The notes beneath the pieces are model-generated. The model was not told the origin of the DNA, searched no databases, and was given only the letters and a program-made list of their open reading frames with translations. 38,605 nt of DNA. Source: a virus. The stretch is from IMG/VR virus record IMGVR_UViG_3300024303_000159, one strand, 5' to 3'. Below, piece after piece: positions 1,834 to 17,173 of the stretch. Position numbers and translations under genes: made by a program. How positions within the stretch are numbered: the stretch's first letter is position 1; each line of letters begins with the position of its first letter.

Positions 1834-2031
1834 AAAATACAAGTGATATTCGCAAGGCTGAATGTCCAAGAATTCAGGTGCCGACATTTTCTCTATATCC
1901 TGAACAGAAATTGCAACCTTCCCATTCAATTTCAGTGACATAGTTTGTCTTGTTACACCATAAGCATCTGCAAAAGCATTCACCGATCCGAACTTCTCAA
2001 TGATTCTTCCACGCAATTTGCTATAATCCAA
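1807..2031 (-). CDS. Cro-like HTH regulator (DUF739-type)
   Basis: 'DYSKLRGRIIEKFGSVNAFADAYGVTRQTMSLKLNGKVAISVQDIEKM...EYHLYFF' matches my memory of the DUF739 phage HTH family. TTG start at 2031 with AAAGGGGGAAG upstream. It is divergent from the cI-like gene. Confidence 0.75.
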   Translation of the reverse strand: MDYSKLRGRIIEKFGSVNAFADAYGVTRQTMSLKLNGKVAISVQDIEKMSAPEFLDIQPCEYHLYFFTQKVHEM

Positions 2032-2051
2032 TTTCGCTTCCCCCTTTCTAA

Positions 2052-2068
2052 GTTCACCTTTCGTGAAC
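2052..2068. promoter_or_regulatory. Operator, perfect dyad GTTCAC-N5-GTGAAC
   Basis: GTTCACctttcGTGAAC, read directly. It lies in the leader of the lytic transcript, 21 nt upstream of the cro-like start. Confidence 0.7.
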
Positions 2069-2104
2069 TATTATTGTAAAAAAATATGTACCACTACAAT
2101 TTGT

Positions 2105-2121
2105 GTTCGCACTATGCGAAT
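2105..2121. promoter_or_regulatory. Operator variant GTTCGC-N5-GCGAAT
   Basis: GTTCGCactatGCGAAT has the same 6-5-6 architecture as the neighbouring dyads. Confidence 0.55.
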
Positions 2122-2134
2122 ATACAACATCATG

Positions 2135-2151
2135 GTTCGCACTTCGTGAAC
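2135..2151. promoter_or_regulatory. Operator GTTCGC-N5-GTGAAC abutting the lytic promoter
   Basis: GTTCGCacttcGTGAAC. It begins 9 nt downstream of the -10 hexamer (2165..2160), so it covers the predicted transcription start. Confidence 0.65.
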
Positions 2152-2159
2152 ACAATGTT

Positions 2160-2188
2160 ATATTAACATAGCTTTTTACATCCGTCAA
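2160..2188 (-). promoter_or_regulatory. Early lytic promoter (PR-like)
   Basis: Minus strand reads TTGACG (2188..2183), exactly 17 nt, TAATAT (2165..2160). It reads toward the cro-like gene. Confidence 0.7.
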
Positions 2189-2218
2189 TATATTTTTTTA
2201 CATTTTGCAAACTTTTTC

Positions 2219-2247
2219 TTTAATTTGTTCGCAATGTGTGTTATAAT
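2219..2247 (+). promoter_or_regulatory. Repressor-maintenance promoter (extended -10)
   Basis: TGtTATAAT at 2239..2247 is an extended -10. The -35 (TTTAAT) is poor. A weak half-operator GTTCGCaatgtGTGTTA (2227..2243) overlaps it. The cI-like ATG is 30 nt downstream, preceded by AGGTGA. Confidence 0.55.
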
Positions 2248-2276
2248 GAGTTTACATTCAAAAGTGAGGTGATTTT

Positions 2277-2651
2277 ATGGATGCCAAAGATGAATTAAAA
2301 GATAGACTGAAAACCGCATTAGATATTAGAGAAAAGAAGCTTGTTGATCTTGCAAATGCATTGAATATCCCTAAATCTTCTATGAGTATGTATCTTTCCG
2401 GTGCAAGAATCATAAAAGATTCTAAAAGACTATATGCTATTGCAAAATATTTGGATGTGTCAGAAGCTTGGTTGATGGGATATGATGTTCCAATGGAAAG
2501 ACCTGTTGAACAAAAGGAAAATGATGAATTGGGTGAAGTTGTCGAAAGGTTGAGAAAAGACAAAGGATTCAGAAGCCTTGTTGTCAAACTCAGCAAACTG
2601 AATCCTTCAAAATTGGAAAGTATCATGAATCTGTTGGATGTTCCTGATTGA
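2277..2651 (+). CDS. cI-like XRE-family HTH repressor (no S24 peptidase domain visible)
   Basis: 'LKTALDIREKKLVDLANALNIPKSSMSMYLSGARIIKDSKRLYAIAKYLDVSEAWLMGYD' is a classic XRE HTH. It is divergent from the cro-like gene across an operator-rich intergenic region. Confidence 0.85.
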   Translation: MDAKDELKDRLKTALDIREKKLVDLANALNIPKSSMSMYLSGARIIKDSKRLYAIAKYLDVSEAWLMGYDVPMERPVEQKENDELGEVVERLRKDKGFRSLVVKLSKLNPSKLESIMNLLDVPD

Positions 2652-2760
2652 TTTCAGAATTCATCAGTATTCCGTATATTAACAATAATATTTTTTCATC
2701 ATCGGTGGTTGTAACAGTTTCAAGTATTGTTTTTCTTATGTATTCAATATATTGTTTCAT
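2623..2760 (-). CDS. Candidate 45-aa ORF convergent with, and overlapping, the repressor 3' end
   Basis: Hand translation: MKQYIEYIRKTILETVTTTDDEKILLLIYGILMNSEINQEHPTDS. GGAAAGGATGGTG lies upstream of the ATG at 2760. Its composition is more protein-like than the plus-strand track ORF 2648..2833. It overlaps the cI-like gene by 29 nt. Confidence 0.35.
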   Translation of the reverse strand: MKQYIEYIRKTILETVTTTDDEKILLLIYGILMNSEINQEHPTDS

Positions 2761-2776
2761 GTTGCACCATCCTTTC

Positions 2777-2794
2777 CAAGAACATCCGTTCTTG
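2777..2794. promoter_or_regulatory. Perfect 7-bp-arm palindrome CAAGAAC-atcc-GTTCTTG
   Basis: Read directly. It lies between the candidate antisense promoter (2827..2855) and the 45-aa ORF. Confidence 0.4.
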
Positions 2795-2826
2795 TTTCAA
2801 AAATACATCATTGTTGTGATGAAATC

Positions 2827-2855
2827 ATCATAAAATCTTGAACATTTTTTTACAA
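2827..2855 (-). promoter_or_regulatory. Candidate promoter firing antisense toward the repressor gene
   Basis: Minus strand reads TTGTAA (2855..2850), 17 nt, TATGAT (2832..2827). The region is AT-rich, so a chance match is possible. Confidence 0.4.
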
Positions 2856-2908
2856 TATTTTTTATACAAAAAAAATCAAGAACAATCGACAAAAAAGGGG
2901 AAAATATT

Positions 2909-4501
2909 ATGTTATACGATATTAAACAAATCAAAATTGAAGATTTAATCATCTATTTAAGAAAATCACGTTCGGACGATCCTTCCATGACTGTTGAAGA
3001 TGTCCTTGCGAAACATGAAGAAGATTTGCAGGAATACTGTGAAAGAGAATTTGGCCAAAAGATGCCTGAAAGTCAAATCTTCAGGGAAGTTGTGTCGGGA
3101 GAAACCATTGATGACAGACCTGTCATGACAAGTATTATGAAAATGCTTGAAACCGGGAAAATCGCAGGTGTACTTGTCAAGGAACCTTCCCGATTATCAA
3201 GGGGAGATCTGCAAGACTGCGGAAGGATCATCAACACATTCAGATATACAAATACTTTGGTAATAACACCGGACACTACTTTCAATCTAACCAATGAACG
3301 TGACCGCAAATTTTTAGAAATGCAATTGACAAAAGGCAATGATTATCTTGAATACAACAAACAGATCTTGAACAGTGGCAGAATTCGATCTGTGAAGCGT
3401 GGGAATTTTATTGGTTCTGTTGCTCCGTATGGATATAAGAAAGTGAAGATCGGTTCAGGGAAAGATTCTTGCTACACTCTTGAAATCATTCCTGAAGAAG
3501 CTGACAACCTACGTTTGATGTATCACCTATTTATCAATGAAGGATATGGATTCATGAGGATTGCAAAACATCTTGACAATATCGGTGTAAAACCAAGGAA
3601 GTCAGAAACATGGTCACCTGCTGCAATCAAAGATATGCTTGAAAATCCTGTTTATATTGGAAAAATCAGATGGAATTGGAGAAAGACCGAAAAAACAATT
3701 GTTGACGGAAAAATTGTAAAGGTAAGGCCGAAAACAAAGGATGAAACGCAATGGATCTTTGTTGATGGAAAGCATGATCCAATCATTGATGATGCAACCT
3801 TCCAAGCAGCACTTGACAAAAGAGGGAAAAACGTAAGAGTCACAAAAGGAAAGGAATTGAAAAATCCGTTTGCAGGCCTTCTGTTTTGTGGTACATGTGG
3901 ATCAGCTATGTCATATAAAAAGTTTAAGCAATATCGTGGAAATTACGAAAACAACTGTGAAAATATGTTGTGCAACAGACAGTCATGGTGCAAAACAAAA
4001 TCTGTGAAATACGATGCATTTTTAGACCGTGTGATTGCTACACTCGAAAGAACAATTGCCGATTTTGAAATGAAGCTTCAGAATGATGATGGTGATGCTG
4101 CTGAACTGCACAAAAACATCATCAAGAATCTTGAAATGGACCTGAAGAAATTGAAGGACAAAGACATCAGACAAAAGGATGCGTATGAGGATGGAATCTA
4201 TACAAAGGAAGAATATGCTTCACGAAACGCAAAGCTTCAGGAACAGATTTCCGAAACAATGGAAGCACTGTGTCAAGCCAAAGATTCTGTACCACCTTCT
4301 ATTGACTACACAGAAAAGATTGTCAGATTCACAGATTGCTTGACTGCTCTGAAGGATCCGGAAGTTCCTGCAATTGAAAAAAACATGCTCCTGAAGGCAT
4401 GTATTGAAAAGATAGTATATCACAACAAAATGGAATCAAAGCCGGGAATCGGAAGATATGTGGAAAATGTGTTCAATCTTGATATTTTTTTGCGCCTTTA
4501 A
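2909..4501 (+). CDS. int: Large serine recombinase (integrase)
   Basis: N-terminal resolvase-type catalytic motif 'IIYLRKSRSDD'. Recombinase domain 'YGYKK...LEIIPEEA'. Zinc ribbon 'CGTCGSAM...C...C'. Long C-terminal coiled coil. 530 aa. RBS AAAAGGGGAAAA. Confidence 0.9.
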   Translation: MLYDIKQIKIEDLIIYLRKSRSDDPSMTVEDVLAKHEEDLQEYCEREFGQKMPESQIFREVVSGETIDDRPVMTSIMKMLETGKIAGVLVKEPSRLSRGDLQDCGRIINTFRYTNTLVITPDTTFNLTNERDRKFLEMQLTKGNDYLEYNKQILNSGRIRSVKRGNFIGSVAPYGYKKVKIGSGKDSCYTLEIIPEEADNLRLMYHLFINEGYGFMRIAKHLDNIGVKPRKSETWSPAAIKDMLENPVYIGKIRWNWRKTEKTIVDGKIVKVRPKTKDETQWIFVDGKHDPIIDDATFQAALDKRGKNVRVTKGKELKNPFAGLLFCGTCGSAMSYKKFKQYRGNYENNCENMLCNRQSWCKTKSVKYDAFLDRVIATLERTIADFEMKLQNDDGDAAELHKNIIKNLEMDLKKLKDKDIRQKDAYEDGIYTKEEYASRNAKLQEQISETMEALCQAKDSVPPSIDYTEKIVRFTDCLTALKDPEVPAIEKNMLLKACIEKIVYHNKMESKPGIGRYVENVFNLDIFLRL

Positions 4502-4519
4502 TATCCAACATAAAGGCGC
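4492..4519. repeat. Perfect 9-bp stem palindrome over the int stop codon
   Basis: GCGCCTTTA-atatccaaca-TAAAGGCGC. The T-run precedes the stem rather than following it, so it is not a canonical intrinsic terminator in either direction. Confidence 0.6.
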
Positions 4520-4544
4520 AAGTTCATAGGCGCATTGATGTTGG
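4505..4544. other. Candidate attP core (40-bp imperfect dyad)
   Basis: The arms CCAACATAAAGGCGC and GCGCATTGATGTTGG match 13/15 as inverted repeats around a 10-bp centre, aagttcatag. The symmetry axis falls between 4524 and 4525. It lies immediately 3' of the serine integrase gene. Confidence 0.45.
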
Positions 4545-4582
4545 AAATCACAAAAACATTGATATAAAGGGGATTTCTAATC

Positions 4583-4759
4583 ATGACGAAAATCGAAAAA
4601 CTAAACAAGCTGCTATTATCAGGAATTATCACAAAAGAAGAATATGATGAACAAATTGAAAAGTATCTGAACCACTTCTTCTATCTATTTGAAATCGGAC
4701 TGATTGATTATGAGGAATTCAAAGAAAAATATGATCACATCAAAGGATCCGAAAAATGA
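4583..4759 (+). CDS. Small SHOCT-like protein (58 aa), not in the ORF track
   Basis: Hand translation: MTKIEKLNKLLLSGIITKEEYDEQIEKYLNHFFYLFEIGLIDYEEFKEKYDHIKGSEK. It contains two 'G(I/L)I..EEY/F' SHOCT-type motifs. RBS AAGGGG. Confidence 0.5.
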   Translation: MTKIEKLNKLLLSGIITKEEYDEQIEKYLNHFFYLFEIGLIDYEEFKEKYDHIKGSEK

Positions 4760-4857
4760 TGAAAAGAAAGCTTTCAATCATTGCAGCCTATATTGATTTC
4801 TATATCATAGGAATAATTGATCGGGAAGAATACGAAACAAGAAGATTCAGCAAATAA
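4756..4857 (+). CDS. Micro-ORF (33 aa) with hydrophobic N-terminus and a SHOCT-like tail
   Basis: Hand translation: MMKRKLSIIAAYIDFYIIGIIDREEYETRRFSK. There is an ATGA overlap with the preceding ORF. Confidence 0.35.
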   Translation: MMKRKLSIIAAYIDFYIIGIIDREEYETRRFSK

Positions 4858-4864
4858 ACACAAT

Positions 4865-4888
4865 AAAGGGTGGATTGCTCCACCCTTT
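4865..4888. terminator. Bidirectional intrinsic terminator
   Basis: AAAGGGTGG-attgct-CCACCCTTT followed by TTG. It sits between convergent genes ending at 4857 (+) and 4891 (-). Confidence 0.7.
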
Positions 4889-4890
4889 TG

Positions 4891-5571
4891 CTATTTGATA
4901 TACAGTGAATAGCTTCTTCCGTTTTTAGTCCGGGAAACCTTGCCTTCCTGATTCCAATGGTAAAGCAATTCCGAAACATCGTTCTTTACGGAAGGATCAA
5001 ACAGTTTTACAAAGTCAGATTGCAGGATCCCTTGATTTTGCCGCAGTGCTTCTTCCACTCTTTCTTCTAGTCCTGCAAGTTCCCTTTCGTGCTTCTTGTA
5101 TGCCGCTTCTATCTCCGCAAAATTTGATTGCAGATCGTTCAGTTCCGCAGTCCGTTCTTCGATATACTCCGGACTTGCAATAACACTTTTAAACCAATAC
5201 GCATGACATTCACTCATTGAATTGCATATCTTCTGCACATCGTTCAGATATGAAACAAGGGATTCTAGTGTTTCAAGCCTTCTTCTTGGTTTCTCATTTT
5301 TGTTCGCAATCCATTCATTCAAAAAATAGGTGTATTCAGCTTTGATCTGCTCTGTGAATTCCTTGTTTAAGGTAAGCCATCCCCAAGGCAGTTCACCTTC
5401 TTTTGTCAGGTGGTTTTGATCTTCATCCGGTTTATTGATTTCCTGCATGACTTTCAGCACATTTTCATCTGTTGGATCATCAAGATTTGTCCTAATATAA
5501 TCAATCAATCCTTTTCCACTCATGACATCAAAATCAGCAGCCTTCTTTTCCTTCTTTTTGAAAAATCCCAA
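4891..5571 (-). CDS. Orphan 226-aa protein (coiled-coil middle, winged-helix-like C-terminus)
   Basis: Clean ORF. I prefer the TTG at 5571 (MGFFKKKEKK...) because AAAGGGGTGA ends about 6 nt upstream. The GTG at 5580 has no spacing to that RBS. I recognise no family motif. The C-terminus 'ILQSDFVKLFDPSVKNDVSELLYHWNQEGKVSRTKNGRSYSLY' looks winged-helix-like. Confidence 0.7.
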   Translation of the reverse strand: MGFFKKKEKKAADFDVMSGKGLIDYIRTNLDDPTDENVLKVMQEINKPDEDQNHLTKEGELPWGWLTLNKEFTEQIKAEYTYFLNEWIANKNEKPRRRLETLESLVSYLNDVQKICNSMSECHAYWFKSVIASPEYIEERTAELNDLQSNFAEIEAAYKKHERELAGLEERVEEALRQNQGILQSDFVKLFDPSVKNDVSELLYHWNQEGKVSRTKNGRSYSLYIK

Positions 5572-5643
5572 TACAATCACCCCTTTGCAAAATTTGGTAG
5601 TTTTATTATATTACTATAATTCCCGGAAGGATAGTCTGAACAT

Positions 5644-5820
5644 TTATTCGGAATCCTTCTCTATGCAGTCTACAATGTATTGATTCAATGATTTCCCTGC
5701 TGCTTCTGCCATTTGCTTGTATTCTTCTTTTTTGCCCTTTGGCACTCTGATTCGTATTTCATCCAATTTTGCAAGATATGTTTCATTTGCTTTCTTCCGC
5801 TGTTCGTAGTGTTTTGTCAT
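5644..5820 (-). CDS. Ribbon-helix-helix (Arc/CopG-like) DNA-binding protein, 58 aa, not in the ORF track
   Basis: Hand translation: MTKHYEQRKKANETYLAKLDEIRIRVPKGKKEEYKQMAEAAGKSLNQYIVDCIEKDSE. The beta strand 'IRIRVPKG' followed by two helices is the RHH pattern. AAGGAG lies 8 nt upstream. Confidence 0.65.
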   Translation of the reverse strand: MTKHYEQRKKANETYLAKLDEIRIRVPKGKKEEYKQMAEAAGKSLNQYIVDCIEKDSE

Positions 5821-5847
5821 GGCAATTTCTCCTTTGGCTTTTTTATC

Positions 5848-5876
5848 AGTATATCACGAATCATTTCACATGGGAA
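5848..5876 (-). promoter_or_regulatory. Candidate promoter of the RHH operon
   Basis: Minus strand reads TTCCCA (5876..5871), 17 nt, TATACT (5853..5848). The -35 lies at the centre of palindrome copy 1. Confidence 0.4.
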
Positions 5877-5882
5877 CATGTA
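5868..5882. promoter_or_regulatory. Operator palindrome copy 1 (ACATG-GGAA-CATGT-A)
   Basis: ACATGGGAACATGTA is an exact 15-mer repeat of 5933..5947. The arms ACATG and CATGT are inverted repeats. Confidence 0.65.
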
Positions 5883-5925
5883 ATATTGCACAAAAAACAC
5901 CTTTCATTTTTGGTAATTTTGCCGA

Positions 5926-5954
5926 TTGTATTACATGGGAACATGTAGTATAAT
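5926..5954 (+). promoter_or_regulatory. Promoter of the plus-strand orphan operon, with an operator filling the spacer
   Basis: TTGTAT (5926..5931), 17 nt, TATAAT (5949..5954). The spacer is TACATGGGAACATGTAg, which is palindrome copy 2. Confidence 0.6.
5933..5947. promoter_or_regulatory. Operator palindrome copy 2
   Basis: ACATGGGAACATGTA. Including T5932 it is a perfect TACATG-ggaa-CATGTA. It is 65 bp centre-to-centre from copy 1. Confidence 0.65.
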
Positions 5955-5999
5955 AACATCATAAGGAACAGGAAAACAGCACGAAAGGTGGTAAAGATT

Positions 6000-6251
6000 A
6001 TGAGAAGAATTATTGAAGTAGAAATGGAAACCAAATGCAAAAAGTTAGAAACGGCACTTGACAGATTTTTTAAAAAGCATCCGGCATTGAATTACTGGAG
6101 AGAAACATTTGAATACATGGCAGAAAACAATCTTGATTTTTTCAGTGACAACAGAATGGCAGATGGAACAAACAACAAAGATTGGGCTTACGCATTACAT
6201 CTTGATATTAACGAAAATGATTTTTATATCTGCGTTATCGAAAGGGCATAA
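6000..6251 (+). CDS. Orphan 83-aa acidic protein
   Basis: ATG at 6000 (MRRIIEVEMETK...) with AAAGGTGG 7 nt upstream. The track ORF starts at GTG 5988. I recognise no motif. Confidence 0.6.
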   Translation: MRRIIEVEMETKCKKLETALDRFFKKHPALNYWRETFEYMAENNLDFFSDNRMADGTNNKDWAYALHLDINENDFYICVIERA

Positions 6252-6297
6252 ACAAGCGGCTGTGCTATCGGCAAGACGGGCAGAAAGTGAGGATGTT

Positions 6298-6480
6298 ATG
6301 ACATTAAAAGAAATTATTTTTAAAATCGAAACGGATGATTTTGTGATTGTCCACGAAGGGCAGATCGAAGAAATAAACGGACTAAAAAAAGGAAGCTTCG
6401 GTGCCTTGAAGAAATACTTTGGTTACAATGTTGAAAAGATTGTACCACTTAACAACAGTGTAGAGATAACACTTTCATAG
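6298..6480 (+). CDS. Orphan 60-aa protein
   Basis: MTLKEIIFKIETDDFVIVHEGQIEEINGLKKGSFGALKKYFGYNVEKIVPLNNSVEITLS. GAGGA lies 4 nt upstream of the ATG at 6298. The longer track ORF (from 6109) overlaps the previous gene and has poor composition. Confidence 0.5.
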   Translation: MTLKEIIFKIETDDFVIVHEGQIEEINGLKKGSFGALKKYFGYNVEKIVPLNNSVEITLS

Positions 6481-6488
6481 TAAAACAA

Positions 6489-6516
6489 GGGCAGGGAATA
6501 ACCCCTGCCCCTTTCT
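6489..6516. terminator. Bidirectional intrinsic terminator
   Basis: GGGCAGGG-aataac-CCCTGCCC followed by CTTTCTC. On the other strand the stem is followed by TTGTTTTA. It lies between convergent genes ending at 6480 (+) and 6563 (-). Confidence 0.75.
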
Positions 6517-6562
6517 CATGCCCCTGTGACCTCACAGAATGGCCATATAGCCACTTTTACGG

Positions 6563-7201
6563 TCAAGGCTTTATAAGTGTACCCTTCTTCAATTTCTGAA
6601 GCATGGTGGTGTTCTGTGAAGCTGTTCCAACATACCCGGTGATTCCGTTTGCCTTTGCAATGGTCTTCCGGTAACTGAAACTTGTTTCTGCTCCAATGGA
6701 TGCAAGTGCATCCACAATGCTTCCGGATGCCCCGGTGTACTTCTTGAAATACTCCTTGGCTGCTTCATAGGTGATGTCATTCAGCAGGAACCAATGTGTC
6801 CAATCCCTCTTTGCAATCTTGGTCTTCACAACACCATAAGCAGATCCCCTTGCTTCGATGGCATAACCTTTGCCAACATAGATTCCTATGTGTCCTTTTC
6901 TCCAAACAGCTGCCCCAACAGGTGCATTTTCAACCGTACTGATCGGATGCACAACTTTTGCTTCTGCCTTGAACATGGAAGATGACTTTTCCTTCCCGGT
7001 GTACCATGAAATCAATCCGGAACAGTCAGTGCATACCTTTCCAACCTTCTTGACATCAGAATCCCACACCATATCCCGGCCATAGGTTTTCTTCAGCCAA
7101 TCATATTTTGCCCTTGTCATGACAGCACCCTTCATTCCGTACACATACGGAGTGCCAAGTTTTGATGCCGCAAAATCAATCAGTCCTTTGTTGGTTTTCA
7201 T
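6563..7201 (-). CDS. Endolysin, NlpC/P60 cysteine peptidase with a C-terminal putative wall-binding domain
   Basis: 'TPYVYGMKG', catalytic 'DCSGLISW', 'GHIGIYVG'. The C-terminal segment is 'SIVDALASIG...YVGTASQNTTMLQKLKKG'. It follows the holin. ATG at 7201 with GGGTGA upstream. Confidence 0.85.
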   Translation of the reverse strand: MKTNKGLIDFAASKLGTPYVYGMKGAVMTRAKYDWLKKTYGRDMVWDSDVKKVGKVCTDCSGLISWYTGKEKSSSMFKAEAKVVHPISTVENAPVGAAVWRKGHIGIYVGKGYAIEARGSAYGVVKTKIAKRDWTHWFLLNDITYEAAKEYFKKYTGASGSIVDALASIGAETSFSYRKTIAKANGITGYVGTASQNTTMLQKLKKGTLIKP

Positions 7202-7219
7202 AGAAATCACCCTTTCAAA

Positions 7220-7444
7220 TTATTCCTTGACTTCAGCTTCGTCTTCAGCTTTAACTTCCGGAAGGCCTGCAACAGATGTGAGAAGCGAAAGAACACCTGC
7301 CAATGCAGATGCACTTGCAACCATTGCCCAATTCACATCACCGATCACTGCACTTGTTCCGATTGTAGCAACAGCAGTCTGTGCCACAGTCTTGATTGCT
7401 CTGATACCTGCACACTTGATCCAACACTTGAAATTTTTACACAT
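7220..7444 (-). CDS. Holin, phiLC3-type
   Basis: 'AGIRAIKTVAQTAVATIG...GDVNWAMVASASALAGVLSLLTSVAGLPE' matches my memory of phiLC3/r1t holins ('RAIKTFAQ...DW...LTS...P'). It has an acidic tail. ATG at 7444 with AAGGGTGA upstream. Confidence 0.8.
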   Translation of the reverse strand: MCKNFKCWIKCAGIRAIKTVAQTAVATIGTSAVIGDVNWAMVASASALAGVLSLLTSVAGLPEVKAEDEAEVKE

Positions 7445-7449
7445 GATTA

Positions 7450-7713
7450 TCACCCTTGTCCTTTCTGTTCTAAGTCTGTCAATCTGTGATTGATCACCTT
7501 GATCTGTTCTTCCACAACAGGCATTCTTTTTGCAAAGTTGTTGTGTTCCCTGACTTCCCTTGTCAGTTCGTCAATCTTGTAGCTTTGAAGTGCCTGTGCT
7601 GTCGATAATTGACTTTCAATCTTTTTGTTGCTGTTGTGATTGGTGATTATTACACCAACCAAAGAAAGGACACCAACAACTACTGATGCCCCGGCTGCAA
7701 TAATTGCTTCCAT
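7450..7713 (-). CDS. Membrane-anchored coiled-coil lysis-associated protein (XhlA-like)
   Basis: N-terminal transmembrane helix 'AIIAAGASVVVGVLSLVGVIIT' followed by the coiled coil 'IDELTREVREHNNFAKRMPVVEEQIKVINHRLTDLE'. It lies directly upstream of the holin. Confidence 0.5.
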   Translation of the reverse strand: MEAIIAAGASVVVGVLSLVGVIITNHNSNKKIESQLSTAQALQSYKIDELTREVREHNNFAKRMPVVEEQIKVINHRLTDLEQKGQG

Positions 7714-7749
7714 GTTTTTGTTCCTTCCTTTCCTTTCTTTTGTTTTTAT

Positions 7750-9609
7750 TTATCCAACAGCTTCCACTGTCAAATACGTTTGCATAAGTCCACCATAGAT
7801 GATGTCATTCACCGTTCCATGACATCGAAGTGTTATCAATTCACCTGCCGACACCGCAACAATCCTTGGGGAAATAACAATGCTTTCAGGCACACTCGCA
7901 CTTGCGATATTCATCTGTGATCTTGCAAGATGCGATGTTGAAGCAGATGACCAAATTGCACATGTCTTCAGTCCTGCGGTTGCGGCACCATAACAAATCT
8001 GTGCACTAACTCTGATTTTTGTAATTCCGGAACCGATCAAAATCCCATTGTTTGAAATGGTCAATCCGCTTCCGACAATGGTTGCTGCTGTCATTGGCAG
8101 AATTTCATAATCACTTGCAGAAGTCTTTTTGAAATTGGTTCCCCCAAGCGTATGACTGACAGCAGAAGGTTCCAAAATCTCACTATTTCCAAGCCTGAAA
8201 CCCTTTGAAGCAACAATCTTCATTGCACATTCAAAGGCATCCTGTTCCGATACCTTCCCGAATGCAACACCTTTCCCGGATGCATTGAAGTCCATCAGTG
8301 TATACGCTGTTCCGATCTGAACAGTCTTTTCCGCTGTTGTGAAGAAATCGGAAATGACAAGCCTGATGTCAAAGGCATAATCACCCGACAGGATCCCGGA
8401 TGTTGAAAGATAGCTGCTGTTGTATGCATAAACAGTTCCGGATGTCAAGGTGGTCCATGCTGAAGCTGATTGCCGCTTGTACTGCAAGGACCATGACTTG
8501 CTGTTCTTGCTGTTCACGGATGCAATGCTGAAATTGATGCTTGCCTTCAGATAGGTTCCTTCAGCGTTTTCAACACCGCTTGCATTGGTTCTGATGCATG
8601 TGAATGATGTGATTGTCGGTGCTGTGTATGCAAGGACTGTGATTGACTGTGTTGATGTTGCTGTTCTTCCTCTGCTATCCGTCACCGTCACAACAACACT
8701 TTTTGTTCCTGCTGTTGTCAGGATCCCGGATGTGATTGATTGTCCATAGAATATTGCACCGTCAACCGTCACTTTGTATGACCTGATGCTGCTATAATAA
8801 GCACCGGAAGCAGCCACAGAAACATTCACCCGGCTTTTCCCTTGGACATATCCCCCGAACTGTGCTGCAATGCCTTCTGTGCCTTCTGACACACTCACAG
8901 ATGAAATTGTGGGAACCACCGATGCAGGAACAGTTGCTGTGAACCAAATTTCCCTTGATCCAATCAGTGTGCTTCCTGAATAAGTCTTGCAGACAATACT
9001 TCCGGTTCCTGTTGTTCCGTTTGGAATAGCAAGGCATAACTGCATTGGAACGGTCCATGCATATGATGTTGCAACACCCGAAGCAATGGATCCGGACTGA
9101 TTGCCAAACACCCATGTCAATGTGTGTGTGAATCCGCTTGATGCCCTTGGTGTGCTGATCGTCACACTTGATCCGATCTCAAATGTTGAAGCAGACAGTG
9201 TTGGTGTTGTTGCCCTTGCAATCGTGTTGAAGGTTCCTGTTCCGGATGTTGAAACGGAACCATAATATGTTCCGGACAATGTGACAGCAATCCCGGCAGA
9301 ACATGAAAAAGAACAGGTCTTTGTTCCATCAGCATTGTGCGGAACAGTCACTGTTCTTGTGTGAATCGTCTTTGTTTGGGTTCCGGTCAATGAAGCATTG
9401 AATGTGAATGCATAGGATGTTCCATTGATGGAAATTGAACCGTTTTTTGTTGTACTTGAATTGATTGTCCATGATGATCCGGTGGAAACAAGCTGCACAT
9501 TCGCTGTCACTGTGGAAGTGTTGTTTTCAACGGATTGTGAAGTCACTGACCATGCAATCTGTATCTTATAACCAAGAAATGCTGAACTGATTGTTCCTGA
9601 AGATGCCAT
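7750..9609 (-). CDS. Tail fibre / host-specificity protein, DUF859-like
   Basis: 'IQIAWSVTSQSVENNTSTVTANVQL...SSWT...ISINGTSY...HNADGTKT...FNTIARAT' is the DUF859 siphovirus pattern as I remember it. It is Ser/Thr/Gly-rich beta protein throughout. ATG at 9609 after AGGTG. The track ORF starts at GTG 9618. Confidence 0.7.
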   Translation of the reverse strand: MASSGTISSAFLGYKIQIAWSVTSQSVENNTSTVTANVQLVSTGSSWTINSSTTKNGSISINGTSYAFTFNASLTGTQTKTIHTRTVTVPHNADGTKTCSFSCSAGIAVTLSGTYYGSVSTSGTGTFNTIARATTPTLSASTFEIGSSVTISTPRASSGFTHTLTWVFGNQSGSIASGVATSYAWTVPMQLCLAIPNGTTGTGSIVCKTYSGSTLIGSREIWFTATVPASVVPTISSVSVSEGTEGIAAQFGGYVQGKSRVNVSVAASGAYYSSIRSYKVTVDGAIFYGQSITSGILTTAGTKSVVVTVTDSRGRTATSTQSITVLAYTAPTITSFTCIRTNASGVENAEGTYLKASINFSIASVNSKNSKSWSLQYKRQSASAWTTLTSGTVYAYNSSYLSTSGILSGDYAFDIRLVISDFFTTAEKTVQIGTAYTLMDFNASGKGVAFGKVSEQDAFECAMKIVASKGFRLGNSEILEPSAVSHTLGGTNFKKTSASDYEILPMTAATIVGSGLTISNNGILIGSGITKIRVSAQICYGAATAGLKTCAIWSSASTSHLARSQMNIASASVPESIVISPRIVAVSAGELITLRCHGTVNDIIYGGLMQTYLTVEAVG

Positions 9610-11279: not shown

Positions 11280-12680
11280 TCAAATAATCAACTTACACAT
11301 GAATGTTGCCTTCGTGTCCACATCTTCAGGTGTGAGATCCAGGGAAAAACCATGATCCCTGATTCTGCTGTCACTTGCAGAAATCACACCGAATGTGTTT
11401 TCATCCATTCGCTGCCATGACCATTCCAAATATGCAGATGCACCAAATGATTCAGTCAGTTCAGCTTTGTTCGTTATTCGATTTTCTCCAAAGTAAATCA
11501 CAACAGCCAATGTTGTTTTTATCTGATTGTTTTTGAATACTGTTCCCCTTGATGAATCAATTCTTAGGACCGCAGCATCCTTTCCATCCTTCCCATCCCG
11601 GACAGTGACATTGAATGCACCGACTGTCTTTGCAGTGAATGATTCCACTATGCCACCAAGGACCAATTTGTTTGATGCAGGTTCAAGCAGATCAATTGAC
11701 AGCTTCCTGACCAACAGATTCTGATTGATTCCATGCGGATTGCTTGTCACATTCACATATGTTCCCACATGGAAAGAAGTCACTGTTTTATCAACGGATG
11801 CAAGATCCGCTGCTGAAAGGTCAATGATTTCCGGTGTGTTGACAAGTGAAGCAAGATGTGCCTTAGCCTTCCGCAGAAGGTTTGAAGCAATTGTGACATC
11901 ATCCCATATATTTGTAGCAAATATCATGCCATACTCTTTGACTGCATCTTCATCAAAGATATAATCAAGATCATTGTTCACCGATCTGATTGTCAGTCTT
12001 TCTTCGGATCCTTCAAGCTTTGCACCAAGTGGAATCAGTGCTGTTGATATTTCATCACCCTTCCGGATCCGCTTCATTTCAAGCAGATTCTTTGCAAACT
12101 CAATCTTCTGTGGTGACAGCAGTGTGAAGTCATTCAAATAATCAATGAAGCTGACACCATCAACCCTTCTGATGTTCACATATCCACCATGCCTGTTGAT
12201 AAGTGATTCATTTATAACTTCCAAGGTCTTTTTGTAGTCATTGGAAGTCATTGAAACTGTTCCCCCGGCATCCGTCACAGTGACATTTCCCAATGTGAAT
12301 TGACGGTCTGCATCAACCTGTGCATTGTGTTCTGAAATAAGCTTCTGAAGGAATTCTGCAATGCTCCCGGTGAATTCATATGGCCTGATGACTGAATCAA
12401 TCAGGAAGGCCATTTCCCCTTCACATTCCACATACTTTTCATTGTAGAATCCGATTTCATCATTCAGCACCCTTCCCCGGAACAGCAAAAAACCATCCTG
12501 ATATACAGTGATGATTGATTTGATCTTCCGTATGAATTCATAGGTGGGATGATCCGGATATATTGTGAAGGTGAAGGATCCTGTTTTGTTCAGTTCCAAA
12601 TCTACCTTCGGGGAAAAGATCTTGTATTCTTCCAAGCTGTCATCATAAAGCAGGAAAGAATCACAAAGTACCTGATACAT
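11280..12680 (-). CDS. Tail-associated protein (Tal, prophage-tail N-terminal type)
   Basis: Immediately follows Dit. The N-terminus 'YDDSLEEYKIFSPKVDLELNKTGSFTFTIY...ITVYQDGFLLFRGRVL' resembles the phage minor structural protein N-terminal region / Prophage_tail family. Confidence 0.7.
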   Translation of the reverse strand: MYQVLCDSFLLYDDSLEEYKIFSPKVDLELNKTGSFTFTIYPDHPTYEFIRKIKSIITVYQDGFLLFRGRVLNDEIGFYNEKYVECEGEMAFLIDSVIRPYEFTGSIAEFLQKLISEHNAQVDADRQFTLGNVTVTDAGGTVSMTSNDYKKTLEVINESLINRHGGYVNIRRVDGVSFIDYLNDFTLLSPQKIEFAKNLLEMKRIRKGDEISTALIPLGAKLEGSEERLTIRSVNNDLDYIFDEDAVKEYGMIFATNIWDDVTIASNLLRKAKAHLASLVNTPEIIDLSAADLASVDKTVTSFHVGTYVNVTSNPHGINQNLLVRKLSIDLLEPASNKLVLGGIVESFTAKTVGAFNVTVRDGKDGKDAAVLRIDSSRGTVFKNNQIKTTLAVVIYFGENRITNKAELTESFGASAYLEWSWQRMDENTFGVISASDSRIRDHGFSLDLTPEDVDTKATFMCKLII

Positions 12681-15400: not shown

Positions 15401-17173
15401 TTAAATGTATTCATGAATGTTTGCACTTGTTATCGGAACACCACCATTGATTGTTTCACAATGCAATGCTGTCAAGCTATCCCCGATGTGGACCGTTCCA
15501 TTTGTCCAATATGCAATTGGATGTGTTTCAACATACCCGGCATCATACATTGCTATGAAGTTATAACCAAGCCGCAAAGAACCGTTTCCACTTGTTACAA
15601 TTTCAAACATGTTCCCATCTAACTGTGCAGAAGTGCTTCCATCACGAATGACAACAGAACCATTGGAAAGAACGGAAAAACCACCATTGATGGTTGTATA
15701 ACCTTCCAAGCTGATTTGACTTGCAGAAATTGTTATTCCACTAACCGCAACACTTATCATTGAACTAACTTCCCCGGCCGTCACACGAAGTGCAATTTCA
15801 TCCGCAAGCTGTTGGATGCTTGATTCAGTGTTGGTTTGCAAGTCCTTCACAGAAAGACTGATTTCATCTGCACGAACAGAAAGGCTTGCTTCTGCTTCCT
15901 GTGCTCTCTTAACCTCTGCCGATATTTCTTCAGCAGTCTGCAAGATTTGGGATGAAAGATCCTTTTCTATGTCGATAAGCTGTGACCTTGTTTCATCAAC
16001 GGTCCTTGTCAGGATGTTCATCTTGCCTTTGATCTGCAAAATAGAACGATTTACCGAATTCACCTTTTCACCATATGCTTCAACACCATTTGCATCATAG
16101 GTGTCAATCAAACCCTGAATTCCCTTCAGTGTTCGATCCAGGATGTATGTTTCCACCACCTCATGCTGTGTGTTCAAACGGATTGCTGCACCGACTTCCA
16201 AACAAGGATTGCCAACCGCTTTTGCTGTTGCAGGCCTATAACACACAACACTGATAATGTCAAACAGCTTCTGTGCAACAGCTGTCAACCCGGAAGCATC
16301 CATTCCATACACAAGGAAATTGTTTTCAACGATATAGCAATTGTCACCATTGCCAACAATGCAACCAACATCATTTTCTTCCTGCCGGATTTGCAACTTG
16401 CTGATGTGCTTCGTTGTGAAATCTTCGTATTGGCAAGAAATATAGTGGTGTTCCTTTATCTTTTCAGTGTTTCCATCGTAAGGGAACAGGCCATCCATAG
16501 GAAACAGATCATTTGCCGGAAGAAGGCCGCTTTCTATTTCAGGCAAAGTGATATATTGCACCTTTCCACTTCTTCCGATATGCCCGAAGCATCCGTTTAT
16601 TTCACAGATTGCCTTCATCACCATGCTTCCACTTAATTCTTCCGGTTCAATCGTCTTTGTCACAACCATTTCATCATTCGTCAAGGTGATTTCTTCCTGC
16701 TCCAAGCCAAAATGTGAAATGAAGGATGCCCGGAAATCTCCAAGGGTGATTGTGCTTTCGGCATCCGGAAGAATATCGTTGTACCATGCCGACACATCCG
16801 CATTGATAATGTCATACATGGCATCATAGGCAACAATATCCCTATACCGTCTGTCTGCTGTCGGTTTGTCGGATGCCACCTTGTAAGTGCCAATAACAAA
16901 AGGATCCGCAATGTGACCAACATACATTGACACAACACAGGTTTCACCGATCAGCGGAATCACATTGCCGATGATCCGCAATTTAAAAACAGAAGCTTCG
17001 CAGGAACCGAAACGAAGTTCCGATTCCGAACAAAGACTTTCTGAAATCTCCATGCTTTCTTCCACAATATCTTCATCCCGAAGTGTGACTGACAGATTTG
17101 GAAATGAAACAAGCAGCCTTTTTCGTGTTCCGGTCTGCTTGAAAAGGTCCTTATATTCTTTTGTGTCTGCCAT
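15401..17173 (-). CDS. Second Tal-like tail tip / fibre protein (590 aa)
   Basis: It follows a small Dit-like gene and the second tape measure gene. The N-terminal region is 'ESMEISESLCSESELRFGSCEASVFKLRI'. It has a long coiled coil and a beta-rich C-terminus. ATG at 17173 with AAAGGAG 8 nt upstream. The track ORF starts at TTG 17179. Confidence 0.6.
   Translation of the reverse strand: MADTKEYKDLFKQTGTRKRLLVSFPNLSVTLRDEDIVEESMEISESLCSESELRFGSCEASVFKLRIIGNVIPLIGETCVVSMYVGHIADPFVIGTYKVASDKPTADRRYRDIVAYDAMYDIINADVSAWYNDILPDAESTITLGDFRASFISHFGLEQEEITLTNDEMVVTKTIEPEELSGSMVMKAICEINGCFGHIGRSGKVQYITLPEIESGLLPANDLFPMDGLFPYDGNTEKIKEHHYISCQYEDFTTKHISKLQIRQEENDVGCIVGNGDNCYIVENNFLVYGMDASGLTAVAQKLFDIISVVCYRPATAKAVGNPCLEVGAAIRLNTQHEVVETYILDRTLKGIQGLIDTYDANGVEAYGEKVNSVNRSILQIKGKMNILTRTVDETRSQLIDIEKDLSSQILQTAEEISAEVKRAQEAEASLSVRADEISLSVKDLQTNTESSIQQLADEIALRVTAGEVSSMISVAVSGITISASQISLEGYTTINGGFSVLSNGSVVIRDGSTSAQLDGNMFEIVTSGNGSLRLGYNFIAMYDAGYVETHPIAYWTNGTVHIGDSLTALHCETINGGVPITSANIHEYI

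Follow-up and report, generated by a model that had tools for sequence, protein, structure and literature searches.

Do the four small genes that lie together at positions 4891 to 6480 of IMG/VR virus record IMGVR_UViG_3300024303_000159 form one system or more than one? The window, by which we mean the whole 38,605-nucleotide (nt) stretch of phage DNA analysed here, corresponds, circularly permuted, to the 38.6-kb metagenomic phage contig JGI Ga0216339_10004497, and more than 20 further contigs are assemblies of the same phage. A preliminary description of the block, made from the letters of the window, had taken all four genes for a single autoregulated prophage system, acting either in defence or exclusion or as a pair of ribbon-helix-helix (RHH) antitoxin and large toxin. 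Comparison with related phages led us to a different reading: in what we take for a temperate siphovirus with hosts among gut Clostridia, the block probably consists of two independent accessory units, a cassette of a 58-amino-acid (aa) RHH regulator with two small cargo genes (p83 and p60), and a standalone gene for a 226-aa protein (p226). This judgement covers the explanation as a whole, including a cassette logic like that of the Aca autorepressors and a role of p226 as a lysogeny-associated factor. The location of the block, its accessory nature and the autoregulation by RHH were retained from the preliminary description; the single four-gene system and the toxin-antitoxin pair were given up. 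The features of the block are as follows.

4865-4888, both strands: bidirectional intrinsic terminator, ending p226 on the minus strand and the SHOCT-type and 33-aa genes on the plus strand
4891-5571, minus strand: p226, 226 aa, TTG start
5572-5650, minus strand: p226 upstream region with promoter-like site and ribosome-binding site
5644-5820, minus strand: RHH, 58-aa ribbon-helix-helix regulator
5651-6486: present/absent module of 836 bp (RHH, operators, promoters, p83, p60), delimited by blastn against the sister phage L058
Between RHH and p83: divergent intergenic region of 179 bp
5868-5881: predicted operator O1, ACATGGGAACATGT, overlapping the -35 of the RHH promoter
5933-5946: predicted operator O2, ACATGGGAACATGT, in the spacer of the cargo promoter
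6000-6251, plus strand: p83, 83-aa orphan, first cargo gene
6298-6480, plus strand: p60, 60-aa orphan, second cargo gene, ATG at 6298
6487-6512, both strands: bidirectional terminator, ending the cargo operon on the plus strand and the endolysin gene on the minus strand

The separation of the two units was seen in a sister phage of about 95% identity (L058; related loci are given by number), in which cI, the 530-aa integrase, holin and lysin are the same and p226 is 93% identical. By blastn the window is colinear with L058 over 2001-4599, 4756-5650 and 6487-7998, and in place of window positions 5651-6486 the sister phage has about 10 nt. The 836 bp missing there correspond precisely to the RHH gene with the divergent control region and the two cargo genes. 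In L001 and L059, where p226 is 70-74% identical, homology to the window likewise ends at 5650; the segment 5572-5650 is preceded by the last codons of RHH in the window and by a T-rich terminator tail in these relatives. The promoter-like site of p226 (TTCAGA-16-TATAGT, 5640 to 5613) is kept with p226 in phages without RHH. Because homology to all three relatives breaks at 5650 and p226 has its own promoter, we regard p226 as a self-contained gene and RHH/p83/p60 as a separate insertion-deletion (indel) module, placed between the terminator of the lysin gene and the promoter of p226.

The wider distribution of the genes agreed with this division. No homologue of RHH58 (the 58-aa regulator), p83 or p60 was found near p226 in any of the 20 other non-redundant (95%) p226 loci. 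Homologues of p83 occur without p60, RHH or p226, and homologues of RHH occur without p226 and with other cargo. It had been set beforehand that the four genes of a single cassette should travel together; they do not, and L058 keeps p226 alone. Nor is the proposed minus-strand operon of RHH and p226 obligate, p226 having its own conserved promoter-like region and occurring without RHH. All four genes are real, each having homologues.

We assign the 58-aa protein to the ribbon-helix-helix (Arc/MetJ) DNA-binding superfamily from its profile matches. It was found at 5644-5820 as described earlier and matched phrog_13890 (E 8e-13; annotated as of unknown function) and, at E 3e-4 to 5e-3, Arc-like PHROGs. 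Pfam matches to HicB (E 1e-3), Arc (4e-3) and NikA (6e-3) all fell just below the gathering scores (17.4 against 20.4 bits for Arc, 19.4 against 21 for HicB), and AmrZ was matched in the PDB at E 0.009 over residues 4-55. The Arc and HicB matches span residues 20-53 and include the beta-strand IRIRV at residues 22-26; the protein ends about three residues after helix B of the core and has no C-terminal extension.

The control region of this regulator is conserved together with it. An imperfectly palindromic 14-mer, ACATGGGAACATGT, occurs in two exact copies, 65 bp apart, in the intergenic region. The RHH promoter on the minus strand reads TTCCCA-17-TATACT (5876 to 5848) with an upstream TG; the plus-strand cargo promoter is near-consensus, with TTGTAT at 5926-5931, a spacer of 17 nt and TATAAT at 5949-5954, and this promoter and its leader are near-identical in L062 and L077. 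L062 has an RHH of 78% identity, which comes last in a plus-strand operon, behind four unrelated orphan genes; both operators recur ahead of this operon. A scan of viral contigs with the O2/-10 operator pattern returned eight loci, five of them with two operator copies (L074, which is the contig of L062, and L075, L076, L077 and L080). Each of the last four has a divergent RHH58 homologue of 52-62% identity. The remaining matches, L078, L079 and L081, were single sites in unrelated sequence with no second copy nearby and were treated as chance.

Operator ACATGGGAACATGT is common to all six RHH proteins with the beta-strand DE[IV]RIR. An RHH with the beta-strand DRIALV (L064) has a control region carrying CTTGTGCAAGTATAT three times, and one with DVFSLR (L063) has a control region with the palindrome TACATGGTATCATGTA; the cargo is different in both. 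Because beta-strand and operator co-vary while the cargo changes freely, there is good comparative evidence that RHH binds these predicted sites and represses both promoters. The earlier suggestion that RHH is an autoregulator is in this light very likely, with two predicted operators to act through. A one-mismatch copy of the operator, AGATGGGAACATGT, was also seen at 15607-15620 on the minus strand, in the tail-gene region; it is probably fortuitous, the chance expectation being 0.7 for sites with two or fewer mismatches in the whole window.

Each RHH locus has cargo of its own, orphan in every case. For p83, 24 other homologous clusters were found at 55-88% identity. Its AlphaFold2 (AF2) model (predicted local distance difference test, pLDDT, 93) has a beta-alpha-alpha-beta-beta-beta fold, for which Foldseek gave no fold match in the PDB. 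The protein had been described as acidic and is so, but only mildly, with an isoelectric point of 5.1. In L014-L017 the p83 homologue is the first gene, divergent from an HTH_26 regulator, and in L068 and L071 it stands among other phage genes; p60 is absent from all of these. The 60-aa plus-strand protein was present as described, with its ATG at 6298, and six other homologues of about 60 aa (40-50% identity) were found among 1.84 billion representatives; no p60 relatives were found in viral contigs. An 832-aa match to p60, P0114, was rejected as a repeat-protein artefact. Neither cargo protein has a signal peptide or transmembrane segment by sequence (grand average of hydropathy -0.7 and 0.0). 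The preliminary description recognised no motif in the non-RHH products, and p226, p83 and p60 indeed gave no significant family in Pfam, PHROG-function, NCBIfam or PADLOC. A comparison of the p83 profile with the anti-CRISPR AcrIIA5 gave an hhalign probability of 0.15%.

Three further observations concern the cargo. In L073, at 4998-6218, a 406-aa protein has a p83-like N-terminus and a C-terminal part that matches Pfam GP88 (E 1e-16) and, weakly, DUF5131; this fusion, in a locus without p60, is the only domain-fusion clue to p83 function. A 45-aa open reading frame (ORF) just upstream of the p226 promoter in L001 (4771-4908) and L059 (5773-5910) ends in EELTDFDDFMSEIEKEYR, a C-terminus found also in the last cargo gene (51 aa, 12365-12520) of the L077 RHH cassette. 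It appears from these sequences that single cargo genes can change between a regulated and an unregulated place in this arm of the phage. The first cargo genes of L076 and L080 had been considered as Sipho_Gp157-like early genes; Pfam did not support this and the assignment was dropped.

These features suggest a mechanism for the cassette, called here Unit A (5651-6486). RHH, presumably as dimers, would bind the two identical operators of a mobile 836-bp cassette, O1 over the -35 of its own promoter and O2 between the -35 and -10 of the divergent cargo promoter, and would repress both itself and p83/p60. When RHH is absent, for example just after DNA entry, the cargo promoter would fire and later be shut down. 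The cargo would most likely be a pair of small host-directed or counter-defence proteins. On this analysis we favour the cassette as an early-burst, then-repressed counter-defence or host-directed unit; a defence, exclusion or counter-defence role of the separate parts is possible.

Of the other explanations, the one that survives best takes RHH/p83/p60 for a lysogenic-conversion or superinfection-exclusion (Sie) moron with steady prophage expression, in which RHH only sets the level. The cassette does lie in the classic moron arm beside the phage attachment site (attP), with its own promoters and terminators, and negative autoregulation is equally able to give steady, low expression. We consider this explanation unlikely. 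An operator inside a near-consensus promoter spacer suggests strong repression once RHH accumulates, and the position of RHH at the end of the L062 cargo operon, behind the same operators, is an Aca-like layout. Most Sie proteins carry signal peptides or transmembrane segments, unlike the cargo of this cassette.

Guilt by association is the route by which anti-defence genes have been found. The conserved operator-promoter signature of Unit A offers such a bait, one that has already pulled out further cassettes with new orphan cargo. Here the RHH/operator route leads into poorly studied gut Clostridia phages, where it could be used for new small phage effectors.

The second unit, Unit B (4891-5650), would be a standalone p226 gene with its own promoter. 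For a length of 226 aa, translation must begin with the TTG at 5571, the codon to which the ATG of the homologues in L001 and L059 aligns. From this start the gap to RHH is 72 nt; the 63 nt reported earlier fits a GTG start at 5580 and a protein of 229 aa. A single-sequence search returned 85 homologous clusters and a profile search 400, all metagenomic, many on contigs of 36-45 kb and none with an informative name. The genome collection held one p226 relative, in an Acutalibacteraceae metagenome-assembled genome, by which the host is loosely indicated, and tblastn against phage records found one unannotated faecal phage contig. Conserved motifs are HLTxEGELPWGW, KGEC..WF, GILQSDFxKLFD and KSGRSY; the N-terminus is MGFFKKK in the window protein and MGLFxFxKKK in the family alignment.

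The AF2 model of p226 (pLDDT 92) is a bundle of helices of 10-25 residues with a C-terminal winged helix at residues 168-225. The winged-helix C-terminus expected from the letters was borne out by this model, and the long coiled coil was not. Foldseek searches of the PDB and BFVD matched the winged helix only, to ArsR, MarR, BlaI and Z-alpha types, and gave no structural match for the helical domain; low-probability PCI-like and primase matches were rejected. The p226 profile matched nothing among PDB sequences. A Pfam match to DUF7343 (PF24034), a winged-helix domain, over residues 169-223 reached 20.6 bits (E 4e-4), below the 27.6-bit gathering threshold, and some p226 homologues carry a weak precomputed match to the same family. 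When all four block proteins were compared with PADLOC-DB 2.0, the sole match was one of coiled-coil type, LmuB to the helical region of p226 (E 0.0033, 14 bits); RHH, p83 and p60 gave none. With at least 400 clusters and a mostly unmatched fold, p226 is a protein for which a phenotype would annotate hundreds of gut prophages.

The neighbourhood of p226 was consistent. In all 15 non-redundant p226 loci with enough flank, an integrase is the nearest large gene: a serine recombinase in 11 (the window, L058, L060, L001, L061, L002, L018, L041, L042, L007 and L031) and a tyrosine integrase in four (L050, L049, L048 and L025). Most often the genes run co-directionally: first a cI-like repressor (HTH_3, alone or with Peptidase_S24), next, in some loci, an M78 protease of the ImmA type, and last p226 followed by the integrase. 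In the group of the window (with L058, L001, L059/L060 and L061), p226 is instead found on the other side of the att region, where it follows the lysis genes and converges with the integrase. L062, L064 and L077 have homologous holin and tail genes and integrases, and no p226; because these phages lack it, p226 is accessory and not essential. The same three carry a protein of about 200 aa with a C-terminal SSB/OB fold (L062 5257-5859, Pfam SSB E 2e-16; L064 5369-5974; L077 12932-13546). Its gene is integrase-proximal in L062 and L064 and follows the RHH cassette in all three; apparently it is one more accessory gene that recurs in this arm.

Since p226 is transcribed with the cI-like repressor and integrase in most relatives, it is most likely expressed from the prophage. 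We propose a cytoplasmic protein whose short N-terminus is hydrophobic and polybasic and is followed by the helical domain and, at the C-terminus, the winged helix. It would bind DNA as a factor associated with lysogeny, serving superinfection exclusion, defence or regulation. Judged from position and modelled fold, exclusion or defence is the foremost candidate role, tentatively held; an auxiliary lysogeny regulator is a possible one; the remainder, apart from the integrase-related role considered next, falls to other functions. It is conceivable, and no firmer than that as a joint claim, that an Aca-like repressor of the RHH type controls new counter-defence proteins, p83 and p60, in phages of Firmicutes, and that p226, its N-terminus close to the membrane and its expression shared with repressor and integrase, represents a new lysogeny-module class in gut Clostridia phages, either an exclusion/defence factor of a new kind or a so far overlooked third part of the lysis-lysogeny switch.

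The constant adjacency of an integrase suggests a further explanation, that p226 is an integrase accessory factor: a recombination directionality factor (RDF, or excisionase) or an integration cofactor. The winged helix is the fold of many Xis proteins, and serine integrases have varied RDFs, often of about 60-250 aa. RDFs are normally integrase-specific, however, and members of the p226 family stand beside serine as well as tyrosine integrases, from several lineages. Co-transcription with the cI-like repressor and integrase would in most loci place an RDF and its integrase together in lysogens, and the three phages just named have integrases and do without p226. An integrase cofactor or RDF is improbable on these grounds, and we keep to p226 as a lysogeny-associated exclusion, defence or regulatory factor.

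Both units lie in one arm of the phage, whose remaining features are as follows.

Minus strand: cro-like DUF739 gene, divergent from the cI-like helix-turn-helix (HTH) gene
2277-2651, plus strand: cI-like HTH gene
2909-4501, plus strand: large serine recombinase (integrase)
4501-4548: candidate attP core, an imperfect palindrome with 19-nt arms and a 10-nt centre, directly 3' of the serine-integrase stop
4583-4857, plus strand: SHOCT-type 58-aa gene and 33-aa gene, between attP and the 4865 terminator
7210-6563, minus strand: NlpC/P60 endolysin, followed by holins and tail genes, also on the minus strand

The block was confirmed as a 1.6-kb segment between two strong bidirectional terminators, both detected on both strands at -15 to -23 kcal/mol and z-scores of -3.3 to -4.6 against shuffled controls. 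Folding energies were -15.2 and -16.9 kcal/mol at 4865-4888 (z -3.7 and -4.6) and -17.9 and -22.8 kcal/mol at 6487-6512. It is accessory DNA, as had been proposed, in the arm between the lysis genes and attP, and blastn of 4500-6560 against 50,697 phage records gave no match. An attP had been placed near 4505-4544; a site at about 4501-4548 is plausible from the palindrome after the integrase stop and from the prophages L004-L007 (integrase 69% identical), which switch from phage to host sequence, within an Mn-catalase gene, at the equivalent position. If attP is at 4501-4548, both units are therefore at the prophage end opposite the integrase once the phage is integrated. A search for an integrated copy of this exact phage, which would fix attL and attR, returned only phage-form or colinear contigs.

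In L004-L007 (about 7160-7630) the insertion is in the Mn-catalase gene (PF05067), whose remaining fragment overlaps at its start with the integrase stop; this suggests the attB type of this serine-integrase lineage. The tandem SHOCT-like ORFs at window 4583-4857 encode 58 aa (Pfam SHOCT E 3e-6) and 33 aa. Window 4600-4755, most of the 58-aa gene, is absent from L058; because short direct repeats flank this indel, a duplication or deletion between the SHOCT-like pair seems to have occurred recently. Elsewhere in the window, a NUMOD4/HNH_3 homing-endonuclease-like gene lies at 643-1134 on the minus strand, between a YqaJ exonuclease and small early genes, and varies among otherwise identical contigs (163 against 160 aa, with an extra 65-aa ORF in L009).

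Several points weigh against the division into an Aca-like cassette and a lysogeny-associated p226. The indel may run in either direction, as an insertion in the window phage or a deletion in L058. No terminator separates the RHH stop from p226, and read-through from the RHH promoter may co-express p226, giving some functional coupling in this phage. The repression of the cassette, its strength and its timing are deduced from promoter and operator geometry. The cargo of the window and of L062, L063, L064 and L075-L080 matched no named family, whether of anti-defence, defence or toxin proteins, in the libraries searched, among which was no dedicated set of anti-defence hidden Markov models. The operon behind the RHH and operators of L075 extends towards holin-like and lysin genes, and the RHH and operators of L076 and L080 sit in GC-rich elements; because of these contexts, the RHH regulator family is not confined to moron cassettes. 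For p226, the structural matches are confined to the winged helix and weak (E > 0.05), and position is the only functional clue.

The two-unit reading changes what an experiment should contain. Cloning the whole block would mix two unrelated units, the real ones being the 836-bp RHH/operator/cargo module and the standalone p226 gene. The window phage and an L058-type sister form a natural near-isogenic pair, with and without the module, for testing the role of the cargo. At the site of the window's RHH cassette, L061 (4938-5783) has a different divergent unit between holin and p226, in which a minus-strand HTH_26 regulator of 69 aa is paired with two small ORFs, of 57 and 65 aa, on the plus strand. 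The RHH-cassette site seems to be a hotspot for modules of a small regulator plus small genes.

A single autoregulated prophage system of all four genes, whether serving defence or exclusion or built as an RHH antitoxin with a 226-aa toxin and the divergent genes as partners, is highly improbable: the four do adjoin between two terminators, RHH stands directly upstream of p226 with no terminator between, and RHH proteins commonly serve as antitoxins, with HicB-, RelB- and TacA-like matches weakly present here, but p226 persists in L058 and in the 20 other loci without these partners, p83 is found without the other genes, RHH homologues pair with other cargo, and neither a toxin-binding tail on RHH nor a toxin or PADLOC match beyond LmuB (E 0.003) was found.

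Comparison with known systems leads to the same division. Similar to type II toxin-antitoxin pairs (RelBE, ParDE, CcdAB, HicAB), the block has a small RHH gene, immediately followed on its strand by a larger gene, and a predicted autoregulatory operator. Unlike them, the partner gene is linked to RHH in no relative and has its own promoter; the alignment of RHH homologues shows no toxin-neutralising tail; and p226 has no toxin match in Pfam, NCBIfam or PADLOC and no toxin fold, its Foldseek matches being to the winged helix only. The conserved partners of RHH are operators, not a protein. The antitoxin-toxin pair is refuted because p226 and RHH occur apart and RHH homologues carry other cargo.

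As a DNA-binding protein, RHH shares with Arc, Mnt, CopG and AmrZ a beta-alpha-alpha core of about 45 residues. As predicted here, it would also share with the Arc/MetJ repressors an N-terminal beta-strand that reads short palindromes, operators that overlap promoters, and autoregulation, and in its homologues a change of operator tracks a change of beta-strand. It differs from them in falling just under the Pfam Arc and HicB cut-offs, and its subfamily, phrog_13890, is known from sequence alone.

The arm as a whole resembles that of Streptococcus phage Sfi21, whose annotation places AcrIIA5 in the endolysin-attP arm and whose lysogeny module holds cI orf127, metalloprotease orf122, the 'immunity region' orf203 and the integrase. 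The p226 loci L004-L007 have the same order of repressor, ImmA-like protease, gene of about 200 aa and integrase, and the window has small accessory genes in the endolysin-attP arm. An exclusion function of orf203 is reported (Bruttin et al. 1997). The p226 profile, in contrast, matched orf203 with an hhalign probability of 0.1%, so that p226 is a positional analogue only; homology of p226 to orf203, and of p83 to AcrIIA5, was rejected on the two hhalign values.

The closest parallel to Unit A is the Aca operon. Aca14 (WP_005725436.1), an Aca of the RHH type, represses its own and a neighbouring anti-defence operon through an inverted repeat over the -10 (bioRxiv 10.64898/2026.07.27.740549). 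Unit A differs from Aca operons in that none of the window's cargo genes matches a known Acr or anti-defence protein and in that its regulator is divergent from the cargo and not last; in L062, where it is the last gene, the layout is the classic acr-aca one. It differs from Aca14 in its host clade, gut Clostridia in place of Proteobacteria, and the two are set side by side by architecture alone. Similar to Aca and Aca14 operons, Unit A has a small, predicted DNA-binding autorepressor of the dimeric type and a palindromic operator over a core promoter; both are conserved, and the small orphan cargo beside them is freely exchanged. It likewise has a second operator, which would control the neighbouring transcription unit, and a place in the accessory region of a mobile element. 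At least six independent elements carry the same or a related RHH with different orphan cargo. In kind, both units of the block are known, an autoregulated variable-cargo cassette and a lysogeny-module accessory gene, made up of uncharacterised components, and on our reading Unit A is an Aca-like, RHH-repressed variable-cargo cassette.

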